From contig OZ241849.1 of NCBI GenBank assembly GCA_965203165.1, positions 1,680,563-1,744,562 on the forward strand: DNA of 64,000 nt, given 5' to 3'. This DNA is from Dehalococcoidia bacterium (GTDB taxonomy: Bacteria; Chloroflexota; Dehalococcoidia; Bin125). Below, piece after piece: positions 35,666 through 56,230 of this stretch (the first letter of the stretch is position 1; each line of letters starts with the position of its first letter). Below the pieces are notes generated by a model, which was not told the origin of the DNA, did no database searches, and was given only the letters and a program-made list of their open reading frames with translations. A program made the position numbers and the translations under genes.

Positions 35666-35689
35666 GCCGCAAACCGGACAACCTGGCGC

Positions 35690-37152: not shown

Positions 37153-37169
37153 CCCGAGGAGGACGAATC

Positions 37170-37799: not shown

Positions 37800-38234
37800 T
37801 TGAGCGACGACTACGGCGTTGATCTGGATGAGATTCTGCGCGTGATTGAGCGCGCGGCGGTGCTGATCGTGCGCTTTGAGGTGCTCGAGCAGCGGCTGCT
37901 GGTGGACTTTCGCGCGGATGGGTCGGACGGGCCGATCATCACGCTGGTGGATCGGGTGAATTCGGCGGAGGAGCGCTTTCGGCATTTGAAGTCGCTGCGT
38001 CCGCGGATGCCGCTGCCGGAGCGGATTTTGTCGTTTCCCTGGCCGCGCGCGGTGGCGGCGTTCGATGAGGCTGGGGTGTGGGATCGGATTGCGGAGCGGC
38101 TGCGGGGTCTGGGCGTGGAGGAGGATGCGCTGGAGCGGACGCACCGCAGTCTGCATGAGGGCGAGGCGGCGGTGACGCTGGCGGCGATTCGGGGGGGCGA
38201 GGGTTTTCGCACGATTTGGGAGCGGGGCTCGTGA
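37800..38234 (+). CDS. Hypothetical protein (144 aa)
   Basis: ORF with GC3 bias, probably with a TTG start. No recognisable domain. Confidence 0.3.
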   Translation: MSDDYGVDLDEILRVIERAAVLIVRFEVLEQRLLVDFRADGSDGPIITLVDRVNSAEERFRHLKSLRPRMPLPERILSFPWPRAVAAFDEAGVWDRIAERLRGLGVEEDALERTHRSLHEGEAAVTLAAIRGGEGFRTIWERGS

Positions 38235-39328: not shown

Positions 39329-40077
39329 AGTTCGCGCGCCGCATTCTGGCGCTGGGGGGGGCGATCGTGGCGCTGGCGGCGCTGGCGGGCTGCTCGTCGC
39401 CGTCGCAGTTCGATGATCCGACCAATCCGGTGGCGCAGATTCCCTGGCCGGACTATGAGCGGTTGAGCTACGCGATTCTGGATCAGACGGATACGGAGTT
39501 GGGCACGTTTGTGATCGAGGTGGAGCGCGAGGGGGATGAGTGGGTGTTCACGCAGCGGTTCGATTTGGCGGCGACGGTGGAGGTGCGGCGGCTGCGGGTG
39601 GACGCGGAGACGCTGCGGCCGATTGAGCAGTCGCTGGAGTCGGAGTCGGGGGAGGAGCGGGTGAGCGTGCGCGGGGTCTACGGGGTCGATGCGGAGGGCG
39701 GGCTGTATGTGGATGCGGTGGTGGAGCAGGACGGGGAGCGGAAGTCGGAGCGGGTGGCGGCGGGTGAGTTCGCGTTCGACAACGACAGTTCGCCGTGGCT
39801 GTGGCGGAGCGTGGCGTTCGGGCCGGATTTGGAGTTGACCTATCGGTCGGTGAATGTGTTTCAGCGCCGGTCGCAGTTGGTGCAGTTGGCGGTGCGGGGT
39901 CAGGACACGCTGCGGGGTCCGGAGGGGGATGTGGTGGTGTGGCAGGTGGTGGTGACGCCGGGTGTGGAGATCAGTCGGGCGTGGTACGAGGTGGATGCGC
40001 CGCATCGTCTGATTCGGTGGGATCAGCAGCCGCGGCGGTATTTGCTGCGGGAGGTGTCGACGGTGCGGGGGGAGTGA
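39325..40077 (+). CDS. Hypothetical lipoprotein (signal peptide plus LAGCSS lipobox)
   Basis: TTG start overlapping the ltaE stop. Lipobox present. Confidence 0.5.
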   Translation: MKFARRILALGGAIVALAALAGCSSPSQFDDPTNPVAQIPWPDYERLSYAILDQTDTELGTFVIEVEREGDEWVFTQRFDLAATVEVRRLRVDAETLRPIEQSLESESGEERVSVRGVYGVDAEGGLYVDAVVEQDGERKSERVAAGEFAFDNDSSPWLWRSVAFGPDLELTYRSVNVFQRRSQLVQLAVRGQDTLRGPEGDVVVWQVVVTPGVEISRAWYEVDAPHRLIRWDQQPRRYLLREVSTVRGE

Positions 40078-40293
40078 TCGGGGGTGGGGCGGCGATGCGC
40101 GGCGGCCTGCCTCTGGCAGGATGCTCACTTTTCCACGTTATCTACAACGCCTCTCCAGCTCGCCTTGGCTGCCTAGTTCCCAGCTCGCTCAGGCTCACAT
40201 CACGCTGCTCACCGTCGCGCGCCCGTATCCCCTCTCGCTTCGGCTCTATGGGCGCTCTCGCCGCCGCCATCGCCTTCGCGCCCATCTGGTCAG

Positions 40294-42771
40294 ATGAAAA
40301 AGCTCGCTGTCGTGCCGGGGACGCCCGTCGCACATGCGCGGGCTGCGCTGCCGGGATCGCGGCCAGATTCGGACGGCGGCCGAGTGTGGAGCCTGGCTGC
40401 CTCGCATGCGAGAATACATGATTGCGCGATACCTGATCTCGGGGGGAGGGGGGGGATACGATCCCTCGTCCGTAGCCCCTGGCGGCTGACCCTTGCGCTG
40501 GCGGCGCTCATCGCCGTCGCCGCGCTAGCCGTCTTCTCTCTCAACACGCCGGTGAACGCCGACGCCTACCAGCCCGAGGTCCTGTTCGGTTCATGCACTG
40601 AGGTGACGGAACCGGTGTGCGTGGACGAAGAGGAACCCGGCGACGACATTGAGGTGATGGGCCTCAAGGCCATCCAAATTTCGTCGGGCACCAGCTTCGT
40701 CCTGACGCTCGGCCACGACGGCACCATCTCCTGCTGGGGCGAAACCGACGCGGTTGAGGCGATTCTCTGTGGCGTGCCGGACATCAAAGTCCAGCGGGGC
40801 AACAATGTGCGCCTGACCGCCGGCGAGAAGGCGGTTGTCGTTCTCAACGCTCACGGCCGCCCGGCGATCGATGAGACCGGCCAGGAGCCGACCCAGGGCA
40901 ACCGCTACCTGGTCGATCAGGAGGAAGTCCGCTGGTCCCAGGTCGCGGCCGGCAATGTGCATTCTTGCGGCATCACCACCGAGGGCGAGGTCTACTGCTA
41001 GGGCTCGTCCCGCGTTCTCCCCGCCATCCTGATCCCGATGGGACTTCTCGGGCTGGAAACAGACCGCGAGATCCCCAACCCGCGCTTCTATAAAGTCGCC
41101 GTGGGCGACGCGCACATCTGCGTGCTGGAGCACGAGGCGAACGTGAACAGCGACGGTGATGTGCTCATGGGGGACACCCAAGTCCGCGCCGGTCAGATTG
41201 CCGCCGGCAGCATCGTCTGCTGGGGCGACAACTCCTCCGGCTAGACCGATGTGCCGGGCGATCCGCATCCCGCCCACCGACCGCCACTTGCGCCCGAGGC
41301 TGCGTCGCCCAGCGGCGATGCCGGTGGCCCCGACAGCGATGGCACTCCCGAGTCGAAGCACATGTACGTCGACGTCACCGCCGGCGCCAACCACACCTGC
41401 GCAGTGCGCACCAGCGGCATTGTCGACTGCTGGGGCAGTGACTCACACGGCCAGAGCAGCGTGCCGATGCAACTGCGGGTGGAATTCGATCCGCCGTCCC
41501 AACCGGCGGTGATCGGCCCCGATGGTCAGTTGACGACTCTGGAGGAGGCCCGCCAGGGCCGGTTCCACAGCATTGAAGCCGGCGAGAACTACACCTGCGC
41601 GATCAACGCTGAGGGCGGCACGCTGTGCTGGGGCGCCAACATCGGCGCGAACCCGAGCGCGGTTGAGACCGTCAGCGACGCGGGCGTGGGCGGCACCGGC
41701 GAAACCGCCGTCACGAGCATGAGCATTGAGGCCGGCTACGCGGCAGGCCAGGAGTACCCGCCGGCCGGCGAGTACACCCAGATCAGCGCGGGCCGCTGGC
41801 ACGCCTGCGCGCTGCACACCTGGGACGAATTCCCGATGCGCGCCGTGAACCCTGAGGCTCCCGAGCCGGCGGCGCTGCAGGCGGTGGACGCTTCCGGGCG
41901 GCCGATCGAGCCGACGCTGCAGATCTCGCTCTCGGACGGAGCCCCTGCCAATCTGGACTGCTGGGGCAACGACGCCGGCCTCGACGGATCGGGCGGCCGG
42001 ATCAACACTGGTCGCGCAGTTCCGCCCAGCGATCTGATTCGCCGTACCAATGACAACCGGCAGGCGAGGATCACTCCTCTCAGCTGGAATCAGATCTCGG
42101 CCGGCGGCACCTTCAGCTGCGGCATCGTCAACATCGCCGGCGGCGTCGGTTCGCCGCCGCCCACTAGCGCAGGAGCGGCTGACGGCGGCCTCTTCAGCGC
42201 GACGGCGGCTGTGGAGGAAGGCGCAGTCGCTTGCTGGGGCCTCATCAACGACAACGATGTCCCGTCTCCTCACGTGATCCACACCAGGGGCACGACAAAG
42301 ATCGTCACAGTGTGCAGCGACGAAACGGTCGGCGGCAAGGCAACCATCTCCGATGGCTGGGGCAAGATCCGCGGCCGCGTTTCCGACGAGGGCGGCTTGC
42401 AGCTGGCCTTCAGTGTGATCCAGACCGGCCCGGACTTCTGGATCGAGCCGGAGTTCGGCTTCGTGCCGAGCGAGGGCAACATGGCGGTCGGCCGCTGGTA
42501 CTACAGCGAGATGATGAGCGTGCCGCGCTACGCCGACAGCGGAACGGGCAAGCCGCTGGACGCCTCAGCGTGCGACTGCGGCGACATGCAGGTCGGCCGG
42601 ATCGCGGTGCGGCTGCTGCCCAGCGGGCACTGGGAGCTCGCGCTGGCGACGCCCACCGGCGACGATCTGGTGATGGCCAACCTCCCGGACAACCACAACC
42701 GCGTTCCCACCCCGGCCGAGACCGGCAAGTGGTGGACCACCGACTGGATCAAGTGGCACGACGCCCCCTAG
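40294..42771 (+). pseudogene. RCC1-repeat (beta-propeller) membrane-anchored or secreted protein interrupted by two in-frame TAG codons (at 40999-41001 and about 41245-41247). Either a pseudogene or a candidate for amber read-through
   Basis: The three track ORFs (40294..41001, 41038..41244, 41251..42771) share one frame. The TAGs sit where the repeat consensus has W (GEVYC-TAG-G vs TISCWGE) and Q (CWGDNSSG-TAG-TDVP vs CWGSDSHGQSSVP). Confidence 0.5.
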
Positions 42772-43086
42772 CGCCGCGCCAGTAGCCCGCGCGCCCAACT
42801 CATCGGGCGCGCGGAGAACACCACGAGGCGGGCGGCTCCTCACGGAGCCGCCCGCCTCTGCGTTCAGCGCCTGCGCGCAAGACGTTCAGCGGCCTGCGCG
42901 CGGCAGGGCCATGATCGCAGCGGTGTCGGTCTGTCGTTCCGCTCAACAAGTCCCGATGGAGATCCCTGTGCGCTTTGCGGTTGTGGCATTTCCTGGGATG
43001 TGGAGCGAATTGGGACTGCATCTATGCGCTGCGGGGGTTTGGCCTGTTCACACATACCGCACGCTTCGTGATTCTCCCGCGCCCCG

Positions 43087-43330
43087 CCTCCGTCATACCC
43101 GCGCTTGCCGCGCGCGGATATCTCGCCGCGGTGAGGGCCAAGCAACCGTCCACGCCTCCCACAGCCTCGCGCGTCACCCCCATTGGGTGCCGCCGGACAT
43201 CTGGATTGGGGTGTTGCGCTGCGCGAGAGGGTCTGCGCAGGAACGACCGGAGAGGGTGGCGGAGGCAGGCGCGGGGCTCCGTGCAGAGCTCGGCGAGATA
43301 CCCGCGGCGAGCGCGGGTATGACGGAGTTG
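43087..43330. repeat. MITE-like unit: inverted REP1 copies (43089-43130 and 43293-43328) bracketing about 160 bp
   Basis: ccgtcatacccgcgcttgccgcg ... cgcggcgagcgcgggtatgacgg in inverted orientation. A GTTCACAC flank motif lies at about 43044. Confidence 0.5.
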
Positions 43331-43391
43331 ATTTAGCGCAGGTAGGGCGGAGTTGGAGGGCGGGGGTGGCGGGGTGGTGGTGGTGTGGGCG

Positions 43392-44774
43392 CTAGTAGCG
43401 CTTGTTCCAGGCGGTGGCGCGCTCGGTGAAGATGTTGGGGTTGGCTACCCAGTCGGCGTAGCCGATTTGACGGTTGTTGGTGAGCCAGTTGATGCGGGCG
43501 TCTAGGCAGTTGAGCAGCTGGGCGTCTTCGACGCGGAGCGAGAAGCCGCCGTATTCGACGGCGGGGTCGTAGGCGGTGACGGCGAGCGCGCCGGCGGAGG
43601 CCTGGACGGCGTCGGCGTTGCCCAGTTCGCCGCGGGCGAGGCCGTCGATTTGGCCGTCGAGCACTGCGGCGATGTAGGCCGACTCGTCGTCGCCCATGTA
43701 GATCACCTGCGGCAGGTCGGCATTGGGCGGGACCAAGCGGGTGCGGCCGGCGACGTTTTCGGTTTGCTCGGAGGAGGTGATCGTGAACGCGGCGCTGCCG
43801 TCGGCGACGACTACGCCGTTGGGCGTCTCGATCCGCGTTCCCGCCGCCAGCGCGCCGTCTTCGTCGGCCAGCCCGGCCAGCTGGAGCAGGCGCGCTTCGC
43901 CGGTGGTGCCGGGGACTGCGCCGATGCGGTCGTCGGAGGTGAGGTCGGCGTGGGTGCGGATGCGGTCGGCGTCGGCGGCGCGGACGAGCAGCGTCTGGCG
44001 GAAGGCGATGTGGCCGGAGGTGAAGGCGACGGCGACGCGCCCGTTGTGGTCCATCGTGCGGCTTTCGAGGATCGTGATGCCGCCGCCGACCATGTCGAAT
44101 TCGGGCTTGGTGGGCGAGAGCCAGATGTCGGACCAGACGCCGATCGGGATGCGCTCGAACGAGAGGCCGGTCTGATCCATCGTCTCGATCGCGTTGATCA
44201 GCGCCGCCTCGTAGCCGCGGTGGTCGCGGTAGCCGGACGATTCCGGGTCGCCGTCGGCGCTGTAGCTGACGGGCTCGAAGAAGGCGAAGAAGCCGAGCTT
44301 GAGGCGCTGTTCACCGCCGCAACAGAGCAGCGGCAGCGCAATTCCGCGGCTGTGGAGCCAGGAGGTGAAGCTGCGCAGGGGCGGGATGTAGCGGTCGTCG
44401 GGCAGCAGGCGGGCGTCGCTCCCGTCGACGCGGATGCCCCACTCGAAGCGTCCGTCGGCGATGCGGCGGGCGACGACGCGGGCGGCGCGTCCGTCGGGCA
44501 GCGCGATTTCGGAGCTGCGCAGCCAACCGGTCGCGCCGCGATCCAGCGAGACGAAGCGGCGCTCGGGCAGGATTGTCCGGCCGCCGATCTGGAGGCCGAA
44601 CTCGACGCGGCGGTTCTCCGCGAGGCGGGCGACCACCTGCGCGTAGTCGCCCGTGCAGCCGGCAGGTGGGGCTGGCAAAAAGCCGTTGGCTGCGACTTGC
44701 CCAAAGCCGGCGAGCGCGGCGGCGATGAGCGCGAGCAGGAAGGCGGGGCGGAGCAGGCGGGCGGTGAGCGTCAT
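43392..44774 (-). CDS. Secreted family-3 solute-binding-protein-like protein (SBP_bac_3 domain) with an N-terminal extension
   Basis: Signal peptide and the C-terminal periplasmic binding fold (GFFAFFEPVSY..., IPIGVWSDIWLSPT). Confidence 0.6.
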   Translation of the reverse strand: MTLTARLLRPAFLLALIAAALAGFGQVAANGFLPAPPAGCTGDYAQVVARLAENRRVEFGLQIGGRTILPERRFVSLDRGATGWLRSSEIALPDGRAARVVARRIADGRFEWGIRVDGSDARLLPDDRYIPPLRSFTSWLHSRGIALPLLCCGGEQRLKLGFFAFFEPVSYSADGDPESSGYRDHRGYEAALINAIETMDQTGLSFERIPIGVWSDIWLSPTKPEFDMVGGGITILESRTMDHNGRVAVAFTSGHIAFRQTLLVRAADADRIRTHADLTSDDRIGAVPGTTGEARLLQLAGLADEDGALAAGTRIETPNGVVVADGSAAFTITSSEQTENVAGRTRLVPPNADLPQVIYMGDDESAYIAAVLDGQIDGLARGELGNADAVQASAGALAVTAYDPAVEYGGFSLRVEDAQLLNCLDARINWLTNNRQIGYADWVANPNIFTERATAWNKRY

Positions 44775-44827
44775 TTTGGGAGGGCCAATCTGTGGGGGGT
44801 GTGGTGTTGGGCTAGGGCGTGTTCACG

Positions 44828-45125
44828 AATCCGTCGTTCCTGCCTGCGCGTGGGTTCCTGCCTGCGCAGGAATGACGGAAGGGGGCGCGATGTGGATGAG
44901 CGGGGCGCGGCGCGATTGGTGGGCTGGTTCGCGGTGCGATTGGTGGGCTGGCGCGCGGCGCGATTGGCGGGCTGGCACGCGGTGCGATTGGTGGGCTGGT
45001 TCGCGGCGTTCCACCCCCCACCTAACCTCCCCCCTGGAAGGGGGGAGGGATGAATTGGGGAAGGGGCGAGTATTGGGGTGGGTTCCTGCCTGCGCGTGGG
45101 TTCCTGCCTGCGCAGGAATGACGGA
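44828..45125. repeat. Composite repeat: REP2 doublet direct repeats (44828-44880 and 45079-45125) flanking a 24-bp x4 tandem (gcgattggtgggctggttcgcggt, about 44911-45005) and the GGGGAGGGATGAATTGGGG palindrome motif
   Basis: Seen directly in the sequence. Confidence 0.8.
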
Positions 45126-45157
45126 TTTGCGGGGGCGGCGGGAAGTGTGGACATGTT

Positions 45158-46420
45158 CTAGCCGATCCGGCGGAAGATGAGGCAGGCGTTTTGGCCGCCG
45201 AAGCCGAATGAGTTTTTGAGTGTGACCCGCACATCGGCCTCGCGGGCGGTGTTGGGCACGTAGTCGAGGTCGCAGTCGGGGTCGGCGTGCGCGTAGTTGA
45301 TCGTGGGGTGGATGCGGCCGTCGAGCATGCCTTTGATCGCGGCGATTGATTCGAGTCCGCCCGCGCCGCCGAAGGCGTGGCCGATCATCGACTTGGTTGA
45401 GGAGATGGCGACGCCGGCGGCGGCTTCGCCCAGCGCCTGCTTGATCGCGCGGGTTTCCGAAGCGTCGTTGAGCGGCGTCGAGGTGCCGTGCGCGTTGATG
45501 TGGTCGATCTCCTCCGGCTCGACGCCGGCGTCGTCCATCGCCCAGCGGATGGCGCGGACGGGGCCGGCTCCGTCGGCGTCGGGCATGACGAGGTGGTGGG
45601 CGTCGGCGCTGGAGCCGAAGCCGGCGATCTCGATCTGGAACTCGGCACCGCGGGCGCGGGCGGATTCCTCGCTCTCGAGGATCAACACGCCTGCGCCTTC
45701 GGCGGGGACGAAGCCGTCGCGCTGCGCGTCAAAGGGGCGGCTGGCCTCTTGGGGGTGTTCGTTGTTGGCGGTGAGCGCGCGCATCACGGCGAAGCCGCCC
45801 AGACCGAGCTGGCAGAAGCCGGCCTCGCATCCGCCGGTGATCACGATGTCGGCCTGGCCGCGGCGGATCACGTCGGCGGCTTCGCCGATCGCCTGGGTGC
45901 CGGCGGCGCAGGCGGTGACGACGGTGGTGTTGTAGCCGAGCAGGCCGAACTGCATCGCAATGTTGGCGGCGGCCATGTTGGGCAGCACGCGGGGGATGAA
46001 GAGCGGGTCGAGGCGCATGCCGCCGCGGTCGATCAGCTTGCGGGCGCCGTCCTCCAGCTCGGGGTAGCCGCCGCTGCCGTTGCCCAGCACGACGCCGATT
46101 CGCGCGCGGTCGAGCGCGTCGAGATCCAGCCCGGCGTCGTCCACCGCCTCGCGGGCGGCGGCCACGGCGAGTTGGGAGAAGCGCGCCATGCGCCGGGCCG
46201 ACTTGCGGTCCATGAAGTCCTGCGGATGAAAGTCGCGGATTTCGCCGCCGATGGTGCAGGAGAAGCCCTCGACGTCGAAGAGCGCGATCGGCTCGATGCC
46301 GCTCTCGCCGGCCAGGGCGCGCCGCCAGAATGTCTCGACGCCGTTACCCAGCGGCGAAAGCGCGCCCATGCCGGTGACGACGACGCGGGTGCGATCGGGG
46401 CGCGTGCGATCGTCCCCCAT
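45158..46420 (-). CDS. fabF: 3-oxoacyl-ACP synthase II
   Basis: KAS-II active-site regions (VTACAAG, HGTSTPLND, GHAFGGAGG). Start chosen at MGDDRT. Confidence 0.9.
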   Translation of the reverse strand: MGDDRTRPDRTRVVVTGMGALSPLGNGVETFWRRALAGESGIEPIALFDVEGFSCTIGGEIRDFHPQDFMDRKSARRMARFSQLAVAAAREAVDDAGLDLDALDRARIGVVLGNGSGGYPELEDGARKLIDRGGMRLDPLFIPRVLPNMAAANIAMQFGLLGYNTTVVTACAAGTQAIGEAADVIRRGQADIVITGGCEAGFCQLGLGGFAVMRALTANNEHPQEASRPFDAQRDGFVPAEGAGVLILESEESARARGAEFQIEIAGFGSSADAHHLVMPDADGAGPVRAIRWAMDDAGVEPEEIDHINAHGTSTPLNDASETRAIKQALGEAAAGVAISSTKSMIGHAFGGAGGLESIAAIKGMLDGRIHPTINYAHADPDCDLDYVPNTAREADVRVTLKNSFGFGGQNACLIFRRIG

Positions 46421-46422
46421 GG

Positions 46423-47892
46423 CTAGCGCTCGCGCTCGGCGGCCGGCGAGGCGTCCGGCTCGTCGGTCGCCAGGGCGTCGGCGTTGCGGAGGCAAGCGCG
46501 GGCGTTGGCGGCGAGCGAGAGCGAGCCGAGCACGGCGACCAGGTCCTCATCGCCGCCGGCCAGCTCGCGGGCGGCGGCGAGGGCCGACTCGACCGAGGGC
46601 GCGATCGCGACGGAGCCGTTCCAGTCGGCGAAGGCGGCGGTGAGGTCGGCGGCGGGGCGTGAGCGGGGGTGGTCGGAGGCGGTCAGGACGACCGCGGCGG
46701 CGCGCTCGCTGATTGCGGCGGCGATCGCGTCGAGCGCCTTGTCGCCGAGCACGCCGAGCACGACGATCAGCCGCTCGTGGGGAAAGTATTCACGCAGCGC
46801 ATCGAGCGCGCGCTGCACGGACTCGCCGTTGTGCGCGCCGTCGACGACGAGCCGCGGGGTGGCGCGCCCGCCGCGCAGCGCCTCGGGCCATTGCAGCTCT
46901 TCGAGCCGCCCGGGCCACTGCACGGTCGCCAGCCCGCTGTGGACGGCGGACTGGGGGATTTCGAGTCCCTGGGCGCGGAGCAGGTCCAGCGCGGCGACGG
47001 CGGTTGCGGCGTTCTCGATCTGGAAGTCGCCCAGCAGCGGGATCAGCAGCAGTTGCTCTTCCGGCTCGCCGGGGCGCGGCTCGCGCCGCCGCAGTCGGAA
47101 CCACTGCCCCCACGGCTCGACGCCGGCGGGCGTCCATTCGTAGGCGGCGGCGACTTCGACCAACGGCGTGGGCAGATCGTCGGCGGCGTTGCGAATTACC
47201 GCGGCGGCGGCTTCGGAGCGCTGCGGCCCCAGCACCGCGACATGCGTGCCGGCGGTCATGATGCCGGCTTTTTCGGCGGCGATCTGCTCGATGCGGTTGC
47301 CCAGGATGTCGGTGTGCTCGTAGGACAGCGCGGTGATCACCGCGGCGTCTTTCTCGCCGAAGACATTGGTGCAGTCGAGCCGCCCGCCGAGGCCGACTTC
47401 GACGACCTGGATGTCGACCTCATCGTCCCAGAAGGCGTGGAAGGCGAGCGCGGTGAGCAGCTCGAAGGTGCTGATGTGGCCCGGCTGGGCGGCGAGCTCG
47501 GCCTCGACGTGGACGCGCAGCTCGTTCGTCAGCGCGGTGAAGTATTCCTCGGGCAGCGGCTGGCCGTCGATGCGGATCCGCTCGCTGAAGGAGTGGAGGT
47601 GCGGGCTGGTGAAGAGGCCGGTGTGGAGGCCGGCGGCGCGCAGGCAGGACTCGATCATCGCGGCGGTGGAGCCTTTGCCCTTGGAGCCGGCGATGTGGAC
47701 GGTGCGGCGGCCGAGTTGGGGGGAGTCCATGCGGCGCAGCAGGGAGCCGATGCGGTCGAGCGCGAACATCGGTCGCGAGCGGCGCGGGAGCGAGCCGCGC
47801 TCGAAGTCGGCGAAGCTCATCAGCCAGTCGGTCGCGGCCTTGTAGGAGGTGATCGCGGTTGGCTCGGTGGGCGCGGGCCGGGTCTCGCTCAT
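46423..47892 (-). CDS. folC: Bifunctional folylpolyglutamate synthase / dihydrofolate synthase
   Basis: Mur-ligase family P-loop (IAGSKGKGST) and FolC domains. Start chosen at MSETRPAP. The track's 612-aa version runs through a repeated leader segment. Confidence 0.8.
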   Translation of the reverse strand: MSETRPAPTEPTAITSYKAATDWLMSFADFERGSLPRRSRPMFALDRIGSLLRRMDSPQLGRRTVHIAGSKGKGSTAAMIESCLRAAGLHTGLFTSPHLHSFSERIRIDGQPLPEEYFTALTNELRVHVEAELAAQPGHISTFELLTALAFHAFWDDEVDIQVVEVGLGGRLDCTNVFGEKDAAVITALSYEHTDILGNRIEQIAAEKAGIMTAGTHVAVLGPQRSEAAAAVIRNAADDLPTPLVEVAAAYEWTPAGVEPWGQWFRLRRREPRPGEPEEQLLLIPLLGDFQIENAATAVAALDLLRAQGLEIPQSAVHSGLATVQWPGRLEELQWPEALRGGRATPRLVVDGAHNGESVQRALDALREYFPHERLIVVLGVLGDKALDAIAAAISERAAAVVLTASDHPRSRPAADLTAAFADWNGSVAIAPSVESALAAARELAGGDEDLVAVLGSLSLAANARACLRNADALATDEPDASPAAERER

Positions 47893-47916
47893 TGCGCTTC
47901 GCTTCCTCTGCCTGCG

Positions 47917-48080
47917 CGTCGTCGACTCATCGTACGCGCTGAGTCGGCCCTGCGCAGCCGCGCCGCCACTGAGCACCTCCTCGCTCCACTCGCGGGCTGG
48001 CGCGATGTCCCTCGTGCGAGCATCGGCGCGGCGCGTTTTCCAGCCCCCGATCGGCGAAAACCTGGGCGGATTTGGCGCAC
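47917..48080. repeat. Copy 1 of a roughly 130-bp duplicated leader element (copy 2 at about 49163-49290); here immediately 5' of folC
   Basis: gcgtcgactcatcgtacgcgctgagtcggccctgcgcagccgcg...catcggcgcgg...cccgatcggcgaaaac(c)tgggcgga(t/c)ttgcgcac is shared. Copy 1 carries a 45-nt insertion. Confidence 0.7.
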
Positions 48081-48412
48081 GGAAGCGTGCGCGATGTGCG
48101 CCGGCATCTGAGTTTGGCGACGGGCGGGGCAAGCTCGCTGAGGCACACGTGACGGTGACGAGGGGCAACGCTCGATCGTCGGCTGCGCCGGCGTGGGGCG
48201 CGCTCTCGGCGCGGGAACGTAGAGCGCTAGGCTGCTCGCGGGCGGAACGCTCGGCGCTCAATGGAGTGGCGTGGGTGCTGCTTGGTACGCTGGCGCGGGC
48301 GGCTTATGCGCATAGGGGTGGTGCCGATCGCGACGATTGAAGCGTCAGGGCATCCGCGGAGACCTGCGGATCGCAGAGTGTGCGGCGGCAGCAGCTTGCT
48401 TCCCGCAGAAGC

Positions 48413-49018
48413 TCAGTACGCGCACCCGGCCTCTTTCAACGCGACGCGGGTGGTGGGGCGCAGGTCTTCTACGGCGGCTTCAAATTCGAGAATGGGAGAA
48501 CGGGTGTCTGGTGCTCTGCCGGGATCGTAGTCCCCTTCTAGGAACGTCGCCATCGTCACCATTATGTCCGCCCGGGCGAGGTGAAACTGCATGAGCTCGC
48601 TGGGGACTCTGCGAAGGACCTGGAGGTGCTGGAAATATGTATCGGTGTAGTCGTAGGCGGTTTCGGTGGCGGCGACGCGACCAAACATGTAACACCAAGC
48701 GGCGTACTCGTCGATCGTCATCTCGCGGGTGGGCTGAGGCGCTGGGGTGGTACGCGACGACTGCTGTTGCGCCTGTTCCTGCGTCTGCTCTTGCTGCAGC
48801 GACAGCTGCTGTGCCTGTTCCTGCGCTTGCAGCTCCTGATGCGTCTGCTCCTGCTGCTCGGTGGCGCTCGATGTGCTGGCAGTTGCGGGCACTGGTGTCG
48901 AGTCGTCCTCGTCTCCCCCAGCGATGGCGGCGATGATCACGACGACGATGAAGAATCCGGCGGCGGCAAGCGCGACGCGACGCAAGGTGGTGCGGTTCAT
49001 CTGCTCTCTCCAGCTCAC
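48413..49018 (-). CDS. Hypothetical membrane-anchored protein with a Gln/Glu-rich linker
   Basis: N-terminal TM helix. The low-complexity QEQ region might be spurious, but codon bias is consistent. Confidence 0.45.
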   Translation of the reverse strand: MSWREQMNRTTLRRVALAAAGFFIVVVIIAAIAGGDEDDSTPVPATASTSSATEQQEQTHQELQAQEQAQQLSLQQEQTQEQAQQQSSRTTPAPQPTREMTIDEYAAWCYMFGRVAATETAYDYTDTYFQHLQVLRRVPSELMQFHLARADIMVTMATFLEGDYDPGRAPDTRSPILEFEAAVEDLRPTTRVALKEAGCAY

Positions 49019-49313
49019 TCGGCGGGGTAGATTTGTGACTGGGGGATGTTACGGCGCTGCGTTGATGTTCCTCTGCCGGCGGCCGATGGTCGTTTGTCGT
49101 AGGGCGTAGGCCGCGACGCAACGGGCCGATCGGCCCGTTCAGCGTCGGCTTCCTGCTCGTTCTGCATGGCGTCGACTCATCGTACGCGCTGAGTCGGCCC
49201 TGCGCAGCCGCGCGGCCACCGAGCATCGGCGCGGTGCGTCTCCCATCTCCCGATCGGCGAAAACTGGGCGGACTTGCGCACCAAGCCCCGTCCACGCCTC
49301 CCCCACGCCCCCT

Positions 49314-49628
49314 TCCGTCATTCCTGCGTAGGCAGGAACCCAGGTGATCTCCAGCGCCCGTATGCGCCACGATGCCGCGACGGTCCACCTGAGCCGCTCT
49401 GCGCTGCCGCTGGACATTCAACGCCACGCTGAGCCGCTCCTACTGCGTGGGTTCCTGCCTACGCAGGAATGACGGAAGGGGCGCAGGGGCGCAGGGCGGG
49501 GTTGGGCGCCGGGTGCGGCGAGATGCTCGCGGCGAGCGCGGGTTCCTGCCTGCGCAGGAATGACGAAAGTGGCAGCGGGTTCCTGCCTGCGCAGGAATGA
49601 CGGAAAGGGCGTAGGAGTGACGGAATGT
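49314..49628. repeat. Cluster of four REP2 hairpins (one joined to a REP1-like fragment at about 49517-49567)
   Basis: ttcctgc(g/c)...gcaggaatgacgga repeated at 49314, 49449, 49540 and 49578. Confidence 0.85.
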
Positions 49629-49680
49629 GGGGCGTGTGCCCATCGGCGCTGGCGGGTTACCCTGTGGGCGGGAGTTGGCG

Positions 49681-50643
49681 ATGGCTGGCACGCTGCGCGA
49701 GACGCTTGAGGGCAATCTGGCGGGACGCGACGACGTCGAGGGCCTGATCGAGGTGGTCGAAGCGATCGCCGAGGGGGCCTCGCGGGTGGACGCGCTGACG
49801 CGCCGGGCGGCGCTCGCGGATCTGCTCGGCGAGACCGGCGAAACCAACGTGCAGGGCGAGATCGTGCAGCGGCTCGACGCGGCCGGCACCGACACGTTCG
49901 TCGAGGTGCTGAGCGAGTGCGGGCGGGTCGCCGCGCTGGCTTGCGAAGAGCTGGAGCAGGCCGTCTTCGTCAGCGACGACGCGGACCACCCCTACCTGGC
50001 GCTGTTTGACCCGGTGGACGGCTCAAGCAACATTGATGTGGCGGTGACGATCGGCTCGATCTTCGCGATTTACCGCCGTGCCGACGATGCGCCGGTCACG
50101 GAGCGCTCGCTGCTCCGCCCGGGGCGCGAGCAGATTGCGGCGGTCTACGTGGTCTACGGCTCGAGCACCGTGCTGGTCGCCGCGACGGCGGGGCGGGTGG
50201 ACGGTTTCACGCTGGATCCGGACAGCGGGGCGTTTCTGCACAGCCACCCGAACATTGCCATTCCGCAGAAGTGCGCCGCGTACAGCGTGAACGAGGGCAA
50301 CGCGGGCAACTGGGAGCCGCCGATGCAGGTGGCGGTGGCCGAGCTGCGCGAGGCCTACGGGCTGCGCTACGTCGGCTCGCTGGTGGCGGATTTTCACCGC
50401 GATCTGCTGAAGGGCGGAATCTTCCTCTACCCCGGCGACCGCAAGAGTCCCGCGGGCAAGCTGCGGCTGGGCTACGAGGCCAACCCGCTCTGCTACGTGG
50501 CCGAGCAGGCGGGCGGCGCGGGCAGCGACGGCGCGAGCCGCATTCTCGACCTCCAGCCCGAACAACTGCACCAGCGCACGCCGCTGATCGTCGGCAACGC
50601 CGACGTCGTCCAATCCGTCGTCCAACGCCTCAGCGCCGGCTGA
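49681..50643 (+). CDS. fbp: Fructose-1,6-bisphosphatase class I
   Basis: FBPase motifs (DPVDGSSNID, GDRKSPAGKLRLGYEANP). Start chosen at MAGTLRE. Confidence 0.85.
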   Translation: MAGTLRETLEGNLAGRDDVEGLIEVVEAIAEGASRVDALTRRAALADLLGETGETNVQGEIVQRLDAAGTDTFVEVLSECGRVAALACEELEQAVFVSDDADHPYLALFDPVDGSSNIDVAVTIGSIFAIYRRADDAPVTERSLLRPGREQIAAVYVVYGSSTVLVAATAGRVDGFTLDPDSGAFLHSHPNIAIPQKCAAYSVNEGNAGNWEPPMQVAVAELREAYGLRYVGSLVADFHRDLLKGGIFLYPGDRKSPAGKLRLGYEANPLCYVAEQAGGAGSDGASRILDLQPEQLHQRTPLIVGNADVVQSVVQRLSAG

Positions 50644-50679
50644 CACACCGCCGCGCGACACCTCCAAGGGAGCCCAAAC

Positions 50680-51708
50680 ATGACCACCGCCGACCTTCAC
50701 GACACCGCGCGGGCGCTCGTCGCGCCCGGCAAGGGCATCCTTGCCGCCGATGAATCGGCGCCCACGATCAAGCGGCGCTTCGACGGAATCGGGGTCGATT
50801 CGACCGAGACCAACCGCCGCGACTGGCGGCAGTTGCTGTTCACCGCCGACGGCATCGGCGACTACATCTCCGGCGTGATTCTGTTCGACGAGACGCTGCG
50901 GCAGCAGGCGTCGGACGGGCGGACGCTGGTCGAGGTGCTCAGTTCGGCGGGCGTGATTCCGGGCATCAAGATCGACAGCGGCGCGAAGGATCTGGCGGGC
51001 GCGCCCGGCGAGAAGGTGACGGAGGGCCTGGACGGCCTGCGCGAGCGGCTCGATGAGTACCGCGGGCTGGGCGCGCGGTTCACCAAGTGGCGCGCGGTGA
51101 TCGCGATCGACGAGGGGCTGCCGAGCGACTACTGCCTCGAGGTCAACGCGCACGCGCTGGCGCGGATGGCGGCGCTCTCGCAGGAGGCGGGGCTGGTGCC
51201 GATCATCGAGCCGGAGGTGCTGATGGACGGGGCGCACGACATCGCGGCCTGCGCCGACGCGACGGAGCGCGCGCTGCGCGCCACGTTCGCGGCCTGCGCG
51301 GCGCAGCGCGTGGACCTGCCGGGCGCGCTGCTCAAGCCCAACATGGTGCTTTCGGGCAAGGACGCCGCCGAGCGCGCGCCGGCCGAGACGGTCGCGGCAG
51401 AGACGCTGCGCGTCTTCCGCAACGCGGTGCCGGCCGCGGTGCCGGGCTGCGTCTTCCTTTCGGGCGGCCAGAGCGACGCGGAGGCGACGGTGAATCTCGA
51501 CGCGATCAACCGGCTCGCGGCGTCGGAGGGCGCGCCGTGGGAGTTGAGTTTCTCCTACGGGCGCGGCCTGCAGGCGACGCCGCTGGGCGTCTGGAGCGGG
51601 CAGCGGGAGAATGTCGCCGCCGCCCAGGCCGCATTCCAGCTCCGCGCCAGGCTCACCGCCGCCGCCCGCCGCGGGGAGTACAGCCCGTCGCTGGAGCAAG
51701 AGGGGTAG
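50680..51708 (+). CDS. fba: Fructose-bisphosphate aldolase class I
   Basis: Class I FBA motifs (GKGILAADES, IKIDSGAKDL, Schiff-base lysine region). Confidence 0.85.
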   Translation: MTTADLHDTARALVAPGKGILAADESAPTIKRRFDGIGVDSTETNRRDWRQLLFTADGIGDYISGVILFDETLRQQASDGRTLVEVLSSAGVIPGIKIDSGAKDLAGAPGEKVTEGLDGLRERLDEYRGLGARFTKWRAVIAIDEGLPSDYCLEVNAHALARMAALSQEAGLVPIIEPEVLMDGAHDIAACADATERALRATFAACAAQRVDLPGALLKPNMVLSGKDAAERAPAETVAAETLRVFRNAVPAAVPGCVFLSGGQSDAEATVNLDAINRLAASEGAPWELSFSYGRGLQATPLGVWSGQRENVAAAQAAFQLRARLTAAARRGEYSPSLEQEG

Positions 51709-53107
51709 GGGGCGTGGTTAAGCGACCTCTGGGGATGGGGAATACCGGGGTAACCGACAGCGCGGTTGAGCGGCTTTGGGTGGTCGCTTCCAGCTCAACA
51801 TCAGACTCGACAATCGCGACATGATCGACCACGACACGATAGGTCAAGCCCGGCTCCAGATTGTCGAACGTGTACGCTGTGGTGCCGTTGTAGACCCTCT
51901 CGTGCCTGATGCCCGAGCGCGTGGGGTGAAACAGCATCAAGCGGTAGTCGTCGTTTGCCGCGTCGGGGTACGGCGCATCCCAACTCACCGTAATGCTGTT
52001 GCTGGTTGTCGTCGTCCGTACATTTTGCGCGCCGCGCGGCGGCGCGGTCCAGCCGGGCGGCGCAGGCAGCGTGCGGACCATGGTTGAGGCCAGCAAAGGT
52101 TCCGGGGACTCGCCGAGTTGTACTCGGACCGTGTACTCGCGGTCTGGCGGAACATTGCGGAAAATGATCGTGGGAGTCCCGTCGCTGTGGTCGTCCGGAT
52201 CATAGATCTCGCCGTCGCTCACTCGTGGGCGAGCGCCAGACAGATCGTCAAGGAGGACGTAGAAGAAGCTCACCGACGGCTGCTCATCCCAGGTCACGGT
52301 CACAGTGTCATGCGTGGCGGTCGCTGATACGCCGGTGGGTGAGGTAAGCGTAGTCGCCGTACGGTCGATCCAGATCAGGGCGTTGGGCGTTTCAGATTCG
52401 ATCCGATCGCGCAGCGATGCGAACTCGAACCGGTACTCAACGCCTTTGCGCAGCCCGACGATGTTGACGTGCATCGCGTGATCGAGGTAGTGGGTATGTT
52501 CGAGCAGCTCATAAGTCCAGGCGGTCGTGCCGGTAGGGCGCCAACGGGCCAGGAAGTGAGAGGTTGCGCCGTTCGGCTTGCTGGTATCAACGGTCCAGCC
52601 GCTAACGATGTCGTTGCGATAGGCGATCAGAGGTATCGCCGGCGGAGCCGGCAGCGCCCGCGCCCTTGCCACATCGAGCGCCGCCTCGCGCCGCACGCCC
52701 CTCGAGTCCGTCACCGTCGCCGTGACCCGCTTGGCGGCCAGCGCCGCATCCTCGTCTGCGGCCTCCGCCTCGCTCAGCGCGCCGCAGTTGATGCGGACGT
52801 TGTCGGCGTCCGCGTTGACGGGGGTTCCTTCAACTTGCAGCTTGTAGGGCGGCTTGCCGACCGCGATCTGCCAGGAGATTTCAGTCAGCGTGCCCGCGGT
52901 GCAGAGCTCGCGCGAGCTTGCCAGCTCGAGCCTGAGGCGCTGGCGCCACTCGATCAGGGCCAGCCAGAGGCGTGGATCGGCTGACCAGCGCTCCACGAGC
53001 GGCGCGTCCGCATCGGGCGGCGCGTCGGCCCGCGCGGGTCCCGCCGCGCCGAGCAACGCCGCGAACAGCCCGATCAGTCCAATCAGCGCCATTGCCGTCA
53101 AGCGCAT
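51653..53107 (-). CDS. Secreted repeat protein: conserved 140-aa N-terminal domain (DPRLWLALIEWRQRLRLEL...CTAGTLTEISWQIA...INCGAL) plus FN3-like modules
   Basis: Signal peptide MRLTAMALIGLIGLFAALLGAAGPARA. Paralog of 53318..55885 and of the 5' partial gene. Confidence 0.65.
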   Translation of the reverse strand: MRLTAMALIGLIGLFAALLGAAGPARADAPPDADAPLVERWSADPRLWLALIEWRQRLRLELASSRELCTAGTLTEISWQIAVGKPPYKLQVEGTPVNADADNVRINCGALSEAEAADEDAALAAKRVTATVTDSRGVRREAALDVARARALPAPPAIPLIAYRNDIVSGWTVDTSKPNGATSHFLARWRPTGTTAWTYELLEHTHYLDHAMHVNIVGLRKGVEYRFEFASLRDRIESETPNALIWIDRTATTLTSPTGVSATATHDTVTVTWDEQPSVSFFYVLLDDLSGARPRVSDGEIYDPDDHSDGTPTIIFRNVPPDREYTVRVQLGESPEPLLASTMVRTLPAPPGWTAPPRGAQNVRTTTTSNSITVSWDAPYPDAANDDYRLMLFHPTRSGIRHERVYNGTTAYTFDNLEPGLTYRVVVDHVAIVESDVELEATTQSRSTALSVTPVFPIPRGRLTTPPTPLAPATGCTPRGGRRR

Positions 53108-53317
53108 TCAGAGACCCCTTCATTCACTGCGATGTTAGCCAGACGCGCGGGCGCGCCGTTTGGTTCCCGCGCGGCGGTCAGCGCGAACAGTGCTGCGATC
53201 CGGATGCGCATCCGAGACCTCCTGCGCTGGTCGTAATGATGAACGGGCGGAGATGAGTGTGCCCGCGCCGCGCGGGTTCGCGGCTTTCGGAGCGCATGGG
53301 CGTACCTGACGGCGCGG

Positions 53318-55885
53318 CTAGCGGCTTTGGGTGGTCGCTTCCAGCTCAACGGCGGACTCGACAATCGCGAGGTGATCGACCACAACTCGGTAGGTCAAGC
53401 CCGGCTCCAGATTGTCGAACGTGTACGATGTGGTGCCGTTGTCGACCCACTCATGCCTGATTCCGGAGCGCGTGGGGTGAAACAGCATCAAGTGGTAGCT
53501 GTCGTCCTCTGCGTCGGGGTACGGCGCTTCCCAACTCACCGTGATGCTGTTGCTGGTCGTCGTCGTCCGCACATTTTGCGCGCCGCGCGGCGGCGCGGTC
53601 CAACCTTGGGGCGGCGATGTGGTGCGTACCGTCGTGGTTGCTTCCAGCGGATCATCTGACTCGCTGAGAGACCACGTGCCCACCCGCACTCGCACCGTGT
53701 ATTCGCGGTCGGAGGGGACGTTGCGAAAGACGACCGAATACGCTTCGCCGTCATGCTCGCGCGGTATGTAGATCTCGGCATCGTCCACGCGCGGGAGCCG
53801 ATCCGACGAGCCCTCGAGGTATACGCGGAAGAAGCTTGCCGACGGCTGTTCGTCCCACGTTACAGTCACTGTGCTGTGTGTGGCCGTTGCCGACAAACCC
53901 GTTGGCTCTGCCAGCGTCCTGGTCGAGCTGCGCACCCAGCGCAAAGCCTCCGGCGTCCTGGCTTCAATGCGATGTCGCATCGTTGCAAATTCGAACTGGT
54001 AGTCGGTACCTTGACGCAGGTCCCAGAGGAGGACAGGCGCTACGCCTAGCGGCGCATGTTTGTGTTCCCACGCTCTGGTGGACCACTCGGTCGACGTCGT
54101 AGGTCGCCAGCGCATGATGAAAAGCGAAGTGGCGCCGTCCGGCTTGGTTTCGTCGCCCAGCAGTCCAGTTGTGATCGCCTCGCCGTAAGCGACTATGCCT
54201 GTGGTTCTCGGCGCAGGCAGCGCATGCGCCCTTGCCACATCGATCGCCGCCTCGCGCCGCACGCCCCTCGAGTCGGTCGCCACCGCCGTGACCCGCTTGG
54301 CGGCCAGCGCCGCATCCTCGTCCGCGGCCTCCGCTTCCGTCAGCGCGCCGCAGTTGATGCGGATGTTGTCGGCGTCTGCGTTGACGGGGGAGCTTGCGAC
54401 TTGCAGATTGTAGGGCGGCTTGCCGCCCGCGATCTGCCAGGAGATTTCCGTCAGCGTGCCTGCGGTGCAGAGTTCGCGGGAGCTTGCCAGCTCGAGTCTC
54501 AGGCGCTGGCGCCACTCGATCAGGGCGAGCCAGAGACGCGGGTCGGCTGGGTAGCCCGGCGAGCTTTGGCCCTGCACGGGCGCTGGTGTAGTGGTGACGG
54601 TTGTCGAAACCTCGACACCGTACAGGTCGAGATGAGCCACGGTGACTGTGTATGTGGTCGCGGGTGTCAGGCCTTCCAGGGTGAACGTCAGTGGTGCGCT
54701 CACCCAGCGGCTGTACGGGCGACGCCAACTCGAATGCTCGACGTAGACGATCCAGCGATCGCGCGTGTTCGGAGTGGGCGCGTCCCAAGTAGCTGTGATC
54801 GTGTCGTGCGTCGCGGTGACGCTGAGGCTCTGCGCGCCGCGCGCTGGCGCCTGCCAAGCGGTTGGCGCCGCAACCGTGGTTGCCCGGATCGTTGTACGGA
54901 GTTGCGCTTCGTCGTCGCCGTGAACTGAAACGTGAATTTTGTACTCCGTCTCCGGCTCGAGATCGATGTGCGTCACCTGGTTCGTCACAACCGCATCACG
55001 GCGCCGCATGATCACTCTCCTGCTGCGTCCAGCCCCATCAGCGCGAATGAGGTCCACGTAGACGTAACTGACCGATGGTTGATCATCCCAGCTCACGGTG
55101 ATCGTGTCGTGCGTACTGGTCGTACGGACGCCCGTTGGCGTGGTCGCGGTCGTCGCTTCAAGGTTCCCGCTCCAGATGAGCGCATCAAGCGTTGACTGCT
55201 CGATCGGATCGCGCAGCGATGCGACTGCGAATACGTAGGAGGATCTTTCGGCGAGACCGCTGAAGGCCGCTATCACGATCTCGAGCTGACCTGTCGAGCC
55301 GATGAGTTTGTATGTCCAGTTCGAATCAGTTGCAGCACGCCAGCGCATCAGCCACCAGCCGCTCCCCGCGACCCAGCTTGTGCTAACCAGGGTCCGCTGA
55401 ACCACTGGAGTGCGCAGATGCGGCGCCGGCAGCGCCCGCGCTCTTGCCACATCGATTGCCGCCTCGCGCCGCACGCCCCTCGAGTCCGTCACCACGGCGC
55501 TGATCCGCTTGGCGGCCAGCGACGCATCCTCGTCCGCCGCCTCCGCCTCGCTCAGCGCGCCGCAGTTGATGCGGATGTTGTCGGCGTCGGCGTTGACGGG
55601 GGTTCCTTCGACTTGCAGCTCGTAGGGCGGCTTGCCGCCCGCGATCTGCCAGGAGATTTCTGTCAGCGTGCCTGCAGTGCAGAGTTCGCGCGAGCTTTCC
55701 AGCTCGAGCCTCAGGCGTTGGCGCCACTCAATCAGGGCGAGCCAGAGGCGCGGATCGGCCGACCAGCGCTCCGCCGCCGGCTCGCCCGCATCCGGCGGCG
55801 CGTCGGCCTGCGCGGGTCCCGCCGCGCCGAGCAGCGCTGCCAGCAGTGCGAGCAGCCCAATCAGCGCCATTGCCGCCACGCGCAT
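53318..55885 (-). CDS. Secreted repeat protein, large paralog. The 140-aa conserved domain occurs twice; FN3-like modules follow
   Basis: Start chosen at MRVAAMALIGLLALLAALLGAAGPAQA (signal peptide). Long stretches are near-identical to 51653..53107 at the DNA level. Confidence 0.65.
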   Translation of the reverse strand: MRVAAMALIGLLALLAALLGAAGPAQADAPPDAGEPAAERWSADPRLWLALIEWRQRLRLELESSRELCTAGTLTEISWQIAGGKPPYELQVEGTPVNADADNIRINCGALSEAEAADEDASLAAKRISAVVTDSRGVRREAAIDVARARALPAPHLRTPVVQRTLVSTSWVAGSGWWLMRWRAATDSNWTYKLIGSTGQLEIVIAAFSGLAERSSYVFAVASLRDPIEQSTLDALIWSGNLEATTATTPTGVRTTSTHDTITVSWDDQPSVSYVYVDLIRADGAGRSRRVIMRRRDAVVTNQVTHIDLEPETEYKIHVSVHGDDEAQLRTTIRATTVAAPTAWQAPARGAQSLSVTATHDTITATWDAPTPNTRDRWIVYVEHSSWRRPYSRWVSAPLTFTLEGLTPATTYTVTVAHLDLYGVEVSTTVTTTPAPVQGQSSPGYPADPRLWLALIEWRQRLRLELASSRELCTAGTLTEISWQIAGGKPPYNLQVASSPVNADADNIRINCGALTEAEAADEDAALAAKRVTAVATDSRGVRREAAIDVARAHALPAPRTTGIVAYGEAITTGLLGDETKPDGATSLFIMRWRPTTSTEWSTRAWEHKHAPLGVAPVLLWDLRQGTDYQFEFATMRHRIEARTPEALRWVRSSTRTLAEPTGLSATATHSTVTVTWDEQPSASFFRVYLEGSSDRLPRVDDAEIYIPREHDGEAYSVVFRNVPSDREYTVRVRVGTWSLSESDDPLEATTTVRTTSPPQGWTAPPRGAQNVRTTTTSNSITVSWEAPYPDAEDDSYHLMLFHPTRSGIRHEWVDNGTTSYTFDNLEPGLTYRVVVDHLAIVESAVELEATTQSR

Positions 55886-55961
55886 TTGCGGCCTCCCATT
55901 CACTGCGATGCTAGCCAGACGATGGGGTGCGCTGCTTGGTTCCCGCGGTGGGGCCAGGGGG

Positions 55962-56230
55962 TGTTCACACTTCTCTAGATCCGTCATCCCGCGGCGAGCG
56001 CGGGTATGCGGGTCAATTTCGCGCGCGGGGTGGGGGAGATGGGAGCGGGGGCTTGGTACGCAGCGCGGCGAGATACCCGCGGCGGAGCGCGGGTATGACG
56101 GTTTTGCTTCGCGCGGGTGTGGCGGAGGTGTTTGCGCGGGTGTGGCGGAGGTGTTTGCGCGGGGGTGGCGGAGGTGTTTGCGCGGGTATGGCGGAGGTGT
56201 TTGCGCGGGGGTTGCGGGGTTGTTGCGTGG
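55962..56230. repeat. Two REP1 hairpins plus a 23-bp x4 tandem (ggtgtggcggaggtgtttgcgcg), preceded by a GTGTTCACAC flank
   Basis: Seen directly in the sequence. Confidence 0.85.

Follow-up and report, generated by a model that had tools for sequence, protein, structure and literature searches.

Predicted secreted proteins with an SprB-like/fibronectin type III super-repeat in a Dehalococcoidia bacterium, and recombination at the DNA block that they share

Why is the DNA of one domain so similar among paralogous genes whose other modules diverged long ago, and what does this similarity do to the chromosome around it? These questions are raised by a 64,000-nucleotide (nt) stretch of a Dehalococcoidia bacterium (assembly GCA_965203165.1, contig OZ241849.1, positions 1,680,563 to 1,744,562; hereafter the window), which carries two neighbouring open reading frames (ORFs) on its minus strand, genes A and B, and the end of a third paralog, gene C, at its left edge (Table 1). 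Their family combines a repeated domain, here named Ndom, with fibronectin type III (FN3) modules. The answer that we consider likely is that these genes encode a family of secreted proteins built from an SprB-like/FN3 super-repeat, in which the Ndom DNA acts as a recombination handle that reshuffles the genes and has flipped a segment of ~51 kb.

Ndom and the four-domain super-repeat

Both minus-strand ORFs were found where a preliminary description of this DNA had placed them (A at 51653-53107, B at 53318-55885, the mechanically called ORF of B running on to 55987), together with the three copies of the repeated domain that it had noticed, one in A and two in B. The FN3-like TATHDT(V/I)TV(T/S)WD modules reported behind this domain are matched by Pfam fn3, above the gathering threshold, in gene A (E 5e-17, 62 bits) and in gene B (E 1e-24, 87 bits). 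Among the three modules that follow each Ndom, each about 90-100 aa in size, F2 and F3 were found by this model, and F1 is visible in the structure model only; the F1 module of gene A shares only 34-42% amino acid (aa) identity with those of B. AlphaFold predicted four consecutive beta-sandwich domains for residues 28-447 of gene A (pLDDT 87.9, pTM 0.76), for which Foldseek returned fibronectin FN7-10, RPTP sigma, titin and contactins (E 1e-16 to 1e-11). Searching PDB sequences with A and B gave FN3 relatives only, and an NCBIfam scan of the two proteins gave no match; looking up the exact sequence of protein A gave no record. The start of gene B was set at the codon of MRVAAMALIG (55885), as its homologs start at MRV or MRL and a conserved block lies upstream. 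The partial gene at the window start had also been called a paralog, and it is one: the frame-3 product of gene C is 97% identical in aa (95.7% in nt) to the C-terminal 285 aa of a protein at locus L004, whose full length has a signal peptide and Ndom upstream of FN3.

The conserved protein block in A and B, DPRLWLALIEWRQRLRLEL...TDSRGVRREAA.DVARA.ALPAP, extends from DPRLWLAL to ALPAP and covers 112-117 aa, not the 140 aa first proposed. The model search and structure prediction that the preliminary description recommended left curated models below threshold and gave a confident prediction, with the Ndom of the first unit of B (B1) modelled as a beta-sandwich (pLDDT 91.9) behind a short N-terminal helix. 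This helix is specific to the subfamily of the window, and the conserved core comprises ~97 aa (profile positions ~19-116). C31, W41, P49 and C70 are invariant in 49 diverse Ndom copies, which carry the motif CTAG...W.I.GG.PPY...TDxxG and an inserted loop of ~20 residues; a disulfide may join the two invariant Cys.

A word-indexed protein search with Ndom returned 4 relatives only; an exhaustive profile search of 1.84 billion representatives raised this to 272 at E<=1e-3, 157 of them with E<=1e-10. The weakest of the significant matches were multi-repeat proteins of Bacteroidota in which Pfam gives 12-19 SprB repeats and CHU_C, and the Ndom hidden Markov model (HMM) matched these proteins at E ~1e-11 to 1e-13. 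When 49 Ndoms were aligned with 13 SprB units by hhalign, a probability of 96.5% was obtained (E 7.6e-10), with query columns 16-107 spanning template positions 1-73 of 80, the whole SprB unit. The curated SprB HMM (PF13573, gathering threshold 28 bits) had no match at E<=1 on proteins A and B, and is the Pfam family most often matched by single Ndoms, marginally and in 6 of the 49. Judged from these profiles and from the model, Ndom belongs to the SprB-like Ig superfamily as a divergent branch that no model covers yet, and its predicted fold is not new. The label "unassigned" therefore stands for the curated Pfam and NCBIfam models, which miss Ndom, but not for its ancestry, as there is a remote homolog in the SprB repeat and an Ig-like beta-sandwich.

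The likeness to SprB covers the whole unit of ~75-80 aa and includes an L.L.L initial strand, the first Cys, G..I...(V/I).GG..PY.(Y/L) and a later (V)TD..G strand; both domains are Ig-like beta-sandwiches of secreted proteins, with fold and secretion being predictions for Ndom. They differ in that the second Cys follows TDxxG in SprB, whereas the second invariant Cys of Ndom has another position, in the ~20-residue insertion, and Ndom is preceded by the helix in the window's subfamily. SprB repeats form head-to-tail arrays of 75-90-aa units, whereas Ndom is never found head-to-tail and alternates with three FN3 domains, which sets its copies 404-475 aa apart. Likewise, SprB proteins are cargo of the type IX secretion system (T9SS) with CHU_C or Por_Secre_tail and serve as gliding-motility or T9SS surface proteins of Bacteroidota, whereas the Ndom proteins have a Sec signal peptide, neither of these domains and a host among the Chloroflexota.

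The picture of a 140-aa domain followed by loose FN3 modules gives way to a larger unit of Ndom plus three FN3-type domains, ~400-430 aa long, of which A has one and B two in tandem; apart from the signal peptide, the proteins are predicted to be made of beta-sandwich domains alone. Across the family, successive Ndoms lie 411-475 aa apart and a protein has from one to at least five of them, so that the true repeat is this four-domain super-repeat. Nearly all members have a signal-peptide-like N-terminus, and Ndom is accompanied by FN3, leucine-rich repeats (LRR) and InlB-type B-repeats (Flg_new_2), with no enzyme domain. We located 18 genome loci in 9 metagenome-assembled genomes (MAGs), all annotated as Dehalococcoidia, with several dispersed copies per genome lying next to unrelated housekeeping genes; among the genomes searched, the family is specific to Dehalococcoidia. 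Our literature search on SprB-repeat/Ig-like and Dehalococcoidia/FN3 proteins found nothing on this family or on the composition of its super-repeat.

The products are internally repetitive and look secreted, as was first noted, the signal peptide of gene A having a basic n-region, a hydrophobic core of ~17 residues and an A-x-A cleavage motif. Sequence features thus point to secretion of both A and B, and together with the model and the partner domains of the family they make it probable that A, B and C encode rod-like ("stalk") proteins that act outside the cell in binding or adhesion. With tandem FN3/Ig stalk proteins (bacterial fibrillar adhesins, fibronectin, titin) they share the string of beta-sandwich domains; fibrillar adhesins, however, have an adhesive tip and an anchor, and neither was recognised in A or B, though relatives carry LRR and InlB-B-repeats.

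Some paralogs end with the motif RL(P/H)FFP(I/T)(Q/W)P (locus L006, 11700-12370 and 14200-14350; L003, 12440-12505), which in L006 is followed by a C-terminal domain of ~300 aa (MAIDGDYAMTDD...) with no Pfam match. Frameshifts inside Ndom were seen in the paralog next to the aldolase gene in L002 (1903-3112) and in another metagenomic copy (proteins P0001 and P0002), and reflect either homopolymer errors of long reads or real pseudogenisation.

The shared block and the rearrangements

Three direct copies of a 300-nt repeat (52642-52941, 54208-54507 and 55420-55719) are 90-92% identical, and the three Ndom copies are 89-92% identical over 351 nt. Their best 90-nt windows have 85-86 matching positions and their longest exact runs measure 37-39 nt; the earlier wording, "more than 90 bp almost identical", was essentially right if slightly generous, the best 90-nt windows reaching ~95%. 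A second 300-nt repeat (51769-52068 and 53320-53619, 89% identical) spans the last FN3 module of A and B. The similarity also reaches the DNA just before both start codons, with an 82% identical 61-nt repeat in the upstream blocks (53108-53185 and 55897-55957). Seven paralogs or orthologs (A, B and those of L002-L005) keep ~75 nt of this block, GGAACCAAGCAGCGCACCCCATCGTCTGGCTAGCATCG...GGGAGG-N8-ATG, which is probably a shared promoter or 5' untranslated region (UTR).

The synonymous sites separate the block from what lies behind it. Where two paralogs have the same residue, they use the same codon in 82-85% of cases in Ndom vs 28-50% in the adjacent FN3 modules. Synonymous divergence (dS, Nei-Gojobori) is low in each of the three Ndom comparisons (0.23-0.24) and between the F3 modules of A and of the second unit of B (B2; 0.26); between the F1F2 parts of A and B2 it is 2.07, a saturated value. 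The GC content at third codon positions (GC3) is 0.84-0.87 in Ndom and 0.71-0.75 in the FN3 cassettes, which would fit a GC-biased conversion of Ndom together with cassettes that are less well adapted in codon use. For genes A, B and C as a whole, GC3 is 0.72-0.78 vs ~0.83-0.97 (about 0.90) in 49 neighbouring genes.

Comparison with relatives at 96-97% average nucleotide identity added a second line of evidence. In L002, an independently assembled contig from another sample, the flanks and the FN3 cassette of B2 are 95-100% identical to the window, the Ndom and signal-peptide blocks 83-95%, and the FN3 cassette of gene A ~40-50%, so that the latter is not orthologous. The B2 cassette is 98-99% identical in aa to that of L002 (dS 0.046, dN/dS 0.16), and dN/dS values of 0.16-0.29 for orthologous FN3 cassettes indicate that these are maintained genes. 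In a neighbour-joining tree, the eight Ndoms of this locus group, taken from three genomes, fall into one star-shaped clade (84-93% identity) with orthologs and paralogs intermingled, and the four-gamete test failed for 331 of the 595 informative site pairs.

Whole parts of genes have also come and gone. The L002 counterpart of gene B is without exactly one 1212-bp unit, that of the B1 cassette, whose closest relatives (63-73% aa identity) are the second units of L010 and L011, at another locus of more distant genomes. The gene next to the aldolase gene in L002 has the cassette type of the second unit of L003, not that of A in the window. Within the window, copying between A and B has involved A's final FN3 module and ~20 nt that follow the stop: the TAG of gene B is turned into TCA-A in gene A by a 1-nt insertion, with homology running ~20 nt beyond the stop, and the loss of this stop codon gave gene A its 38-aa tail. 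GC at codon positions 1/2/3 of the tail is 0.63/0.79/0.63, which is not coding-like, and we rejected these 38 aa as a candidate sorting signal, as they are read-through of a former 3' UTR. The tail keeps TPVFPIP, a remnant of the terminal motif described above.

The largest change concerns the ~51 kb between the inverted paralogs. Two related genomes were compared, OZ241913.1 (flanks ~96% identical to the window) and OZ251457.1 (~84%). In both, the flank with the enoyl-CoA-hydratase gene (window 56.2-59.2 kb) lies beside an Ndom gene (L004 and L014) whose match runs on into window 2-5858 and 932-8128, respectively, and the aldolase flank (L003 and L009), at a distance of 65-68 kb and on the other strand, has a different paralog beside it. 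In the window and in L002, genes B and A connect the hydratase flank with the aldolase flank. If OZ251457.1 is taken as outgroup, these alignments place a derived inversion of ~51 kb (861-51652) in the lineage of the window, with its crossover in or next to the signal-peptide-Ndom block. The two flanking genes of OZ251457.1 share 2.6 kb at 93% identity. GC skew was of no help in tracing the inversion.

In our reading, a block of ~350-550 bp, made of promoter/5' UTR, signal peptide and Ndom, is kept similar by repeated non-reciprocal exchange, while the FN3 cassettes behind it diverged anciently (dS ~2 vs ~0.23 in the block). As the block contains exact runs of 37-39 nt, it can serve as a substrate for general homologous recombination. 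Such recombination has made Ndom alleles mosaic, added to B or removed from it exactly one 1212-bp unit, and given the gene next to the aldolase gene another FN3 cassette. It has also duplicated the last FN3 module, along with ~20 nt of 3' UTR, into A, where the stop codon was lost, and has inverted the ~51-kb segment between inverted paralogs. General homologous recombination with gene conversion on this block seems the simplest mechanism; it would presumably depend on RecA, and the variation that it creates may bring a selective benefit. Synonymous sites, mosaics, unit loss, cassette replacement and the inversion all support the gene conversion or recombination among modules suggested in the preliminary description; its "surface-protein family" can be kept as an interpretation only, as no anchor or sorting signal was found.

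Weighing the alternatives

Several observations weigh against our reading. The PHI-like permutation test reached only modest significance (p = 0.03), and a dS of 0.23 among Ndoms means that homogenisation is incomplete and not very fast. In L010 and L011, the two Ndoms of one protein pair with their orthologs and not with each other, so that concerted evolution depends on the locus. The left breakpoint of the inversion lies outside the window, and the window's own arrangement is corroborated by one independent contig only (L002). On the protein side, curated Pfam models, SprB included, stay below threshold on every Ndom (best E 0.03), for which reason the homology to SprB rests on profile-profile and profile-sequence evidence. 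The signal peptides of A and B were judged by eye from the sequence, and neither protein shows a cell-wall anchor, a transmembrane segment or a sorting signal of a known type.

Could the similarity of Ndom reflect purifying selection on an essential domain beside fast-evolving FN3 modules, with no gene conversion at all? Ndom is the best-conserved module across the family and has a dN/dS of 0.18-0.35, as such selection would predict. However, selection at the protein level cannot hold synonymous sites, and does not explain the contrast between Ndom and FN3 in codon identity (0.82-0.85 vs 0.28-0.50) and in dS (0.23 vs ~2). Nor would extra constraint leave the Ndom "orthologs" of L002 more diverged than their flanks (83-95% vs 95-100%), the opposite being expected, and we regard this explanation as very improbable. 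We give even less credit to the idea that the repeats, or the arrangement of A and B, arose by assembly from collapsed or chimeric paralogs, a doubt that the preliminary description had itself raised. Short-read assemblers can be led astray by repeats that are 350-550 bp long and ~90% identical, gene calls are frameshifted in other assemblies (P0001 and P0002), and the L002 contig ends right at the locus. Yet the Ndom copies differ by 8-12% and are set in unique FN3 sequence, and L002 joins the end of the hydratase gene, a B-like gene, an A-like gene and the aldolase gene in the same order. Moreover, equivalent multi-unit genes are present in several closed long-read MAG chromosomes, and all reading frames are intact, with the dN/dS of 0.16-0.29 given above for orthologous FN3 cassettes.

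Programmed variation, in which a shufflon-like site-specific invertase or a diversity-generating retroelement would switch surface variants, is suggested by the inverted segment of ~51 kb between paralogs and by the conserved 5' block followed by variable cassettes. However, a Pfam scan of 40 proteins of the window (all but a few small predicted genes) showed no recombinase, integrase, transposase or reverse transcriptase, and neither did the Pfam annotation of the syntenic L002 locus, which covers part of 43-51 kb. We rejected an invertase or shufflon on this ground and because the junctions lie in homologous stretches of 350-2500 bp, hundreds to thousands of bp, and not in short sites. A diversity-generating retroelement was rejected likewise: the mismatches between copies are not adenine-specific and involve all base pairs (7-11 C/G, 4-6 C/T and 3-6 G/T changes). 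Each paralog also has its own promoter-like block, with a ribosome-binding site, and its own signal peptide, so that there are no silent cassettes, and programmed switching as a whole is improbable. A more serious alternative, though one that we doubt, bears on function alone and fits all the sequence evidence: the proteins would not be adhesins but S-layer- or sheath-like envelope components or secreted polymer-binding modules, and recombination would be a neutral by-product. That neither an adhesive tip, LPXTG, an anchor nor a C-terminal sorting domain was recognised in A or B with Pfam and NCBIfam speaks for it, as does their GC3, low next to ~0.90 in neighbouring genes. Against it, many divergent paralogs per genome, a variable number of units and partners with LRR and InlB-B-repeats fit binding proteins better than one S-layer protein that forms a lattice.

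Bacterial surface-protein families are known in which repeats mediate recombination, conserved 5' blocks precede variable cassettes and inversions occur between inverted paralogs. With such families A, B and C share the low-dS 5' block beside old cassettes, the mosaics, the variable unit number and the inversion. They differ in having no silent donor cassettes and, among the Pfam-scanned proteins, no dedicated recombinase. Their host is free-living and uncultured and not a pathogen, the rate is apparently moderate (dS 0.23) and the inverted segment carries housekeeping genes. In kind, then, the feature is ordinary, a modular secreted Ig/FN3 family with repeat-mediated recombination; no concept is overturned by it and no long-standing question is opened.

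Surroundings of the locus and implications

Coordinates of the features discussed are collected in Table 1.

Table 1. Features of the Ndom locus, in window positions
Feature	Position	Strand	Description
Gene A	51653..53107	-	484 aa: signal peptide + Ndom + three FN3-type modules + 38-aa read-through tail
Gene A signal peptide	53027..53107	-	MRLTAMALIGLIGLFAALLGAAGPARA, followed by DA after the cleavage site (by eye)
Ndom copy A	52643..52993	-	SprB-repeat-like Ig domain with N-terminal helix; hmmsearch 221 bits
Gene A module F1	52340..52642	-	FN3-like beta-sandwich, undetected by Pfam; strands E139-E225 in model
Gene A module F2	52037..52339	-	FN3, start ATATHDTVTVTWD; Pfam fn3 and model
Gene A module F3	51770..52036	-	FN3; recently shared with last module of gene B
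Gene A read-through tail	51653..51769	-	overlaps 3' end of convergent aldolase gene
Upstream block of gene A	53108..53185	-	putative promoter / 5' UTR, GGGG/GGAGG ribosome-binding site
Gene B	53318..55885	-	855 aa: signal peptide + two [Ndom + 3 FN3] units
Ndom copy B1	55421..55771	-	repeat, profile match, AlphaFold model
B1 FN3 cassette, three modules	54566..55420	-	missing from close relative L002
Ndom copy B2, internal	54209..54559	-	repeat and profile match
B2 FN3 cassette, three modules	53321..54208	-	orthologous to L002 gene 1
Upstream block of gene B	55886..55960	-	conserved; shares repeat with upstream block of gene A
Gene C, cut by window edge	3..860	+	3' part of third paralog (FN3 modules); inverted relative to A and B
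Segment between inverted paralogs	861..51652	.	~51 kb housekeeping; inverted relative to two related genomes
Tandem-repeat arrays with shared core	6063-6517, 43090-43325, 56087-56231, 59376-59666, 61622-62530		intergenic

The ~51-kb segment holds ~45 housekeeping genes. Neighbours include genes for an aldolase, a fructose bisphosphatase (FBPase), an enoyl-CoA hydratase, glutamyl-tRNA synthetase (GluRS), a pst transporter, and folate and cysteine biosynthesis, and a mobile-element or prophage context was rejected as the neighbouring genes are of this housekeeping kind. Restriction-modification-like genes occur inside the segment (12638-13252, 20920-22500 and 30548-31165), namely an MT-A70 methyltransferase, an N6_N4 methylase fused to an Mrr_cat nuclease domain and a Uma2-family endonuclease. 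Four PALP-family (cysteine-synthase-like) genes, with a rhodanese, an Rrf2 regulator and a PAPS reductase, lie in the inverted segment at 9359-26094, which by gene content appears to be a cluster for sulfur assimilation. Positions 41251-42771 and 43392-44774 encode an RCC1-repeat protein of 506 aa and a protein of 460 aa that Pfam does not match; the latter is kept in L002, L003 and L009.

The intergenic tandem-repeat arrays have a period of ~23-24 nt, one of them of 92 nt, and share the core GCGCGGGTRTGRCGG, for which 46 matches were observed vs 0.22 expected. One array lies directly upstream of the promoter block of gene B, and another is the point where colinearity with L004 and L014 breaks (5858/5876). 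When translated, the arrays give spurious "PAQAGTR / RHSCAGRNP" ORFs.

What is new here lies in the detail: an SprB-like domain that Pfam does not assign, a four-domain super-repeat and structural variation within a species-level cluster. Ndom is carried by ~270 clusters at 50% identity, which could seed a new Pfam or InterPro model. The locus is a clean natural example of a short conserved coding block that drives gene conversion, changes the number of units, replaces cassettes and inverts ~51 kb between genomes that are 96-97% identical, which bears on quality control of MAG assemblies and on the origin of structural variation in slow-growing soil bacteria. Little is known of the cell surface in this phylum, and the super-repeat defines a four-domain architecture among its envelope or secreted proteins. 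Going further, one might speculate, with a good deal of reserve, that the block is a selected "recombination handle" by which soil Dehalococcoidia swap and re-number FN3 cassettes among expressed paralogs without a recombinase, inversions being tolerated, and that the super-repeat represents a new, Chloroflexota-specific class of envelope filament. If this were true, the handle would give these bacteria a means of diversifying their surface proteins, for example in evading phage or predators.

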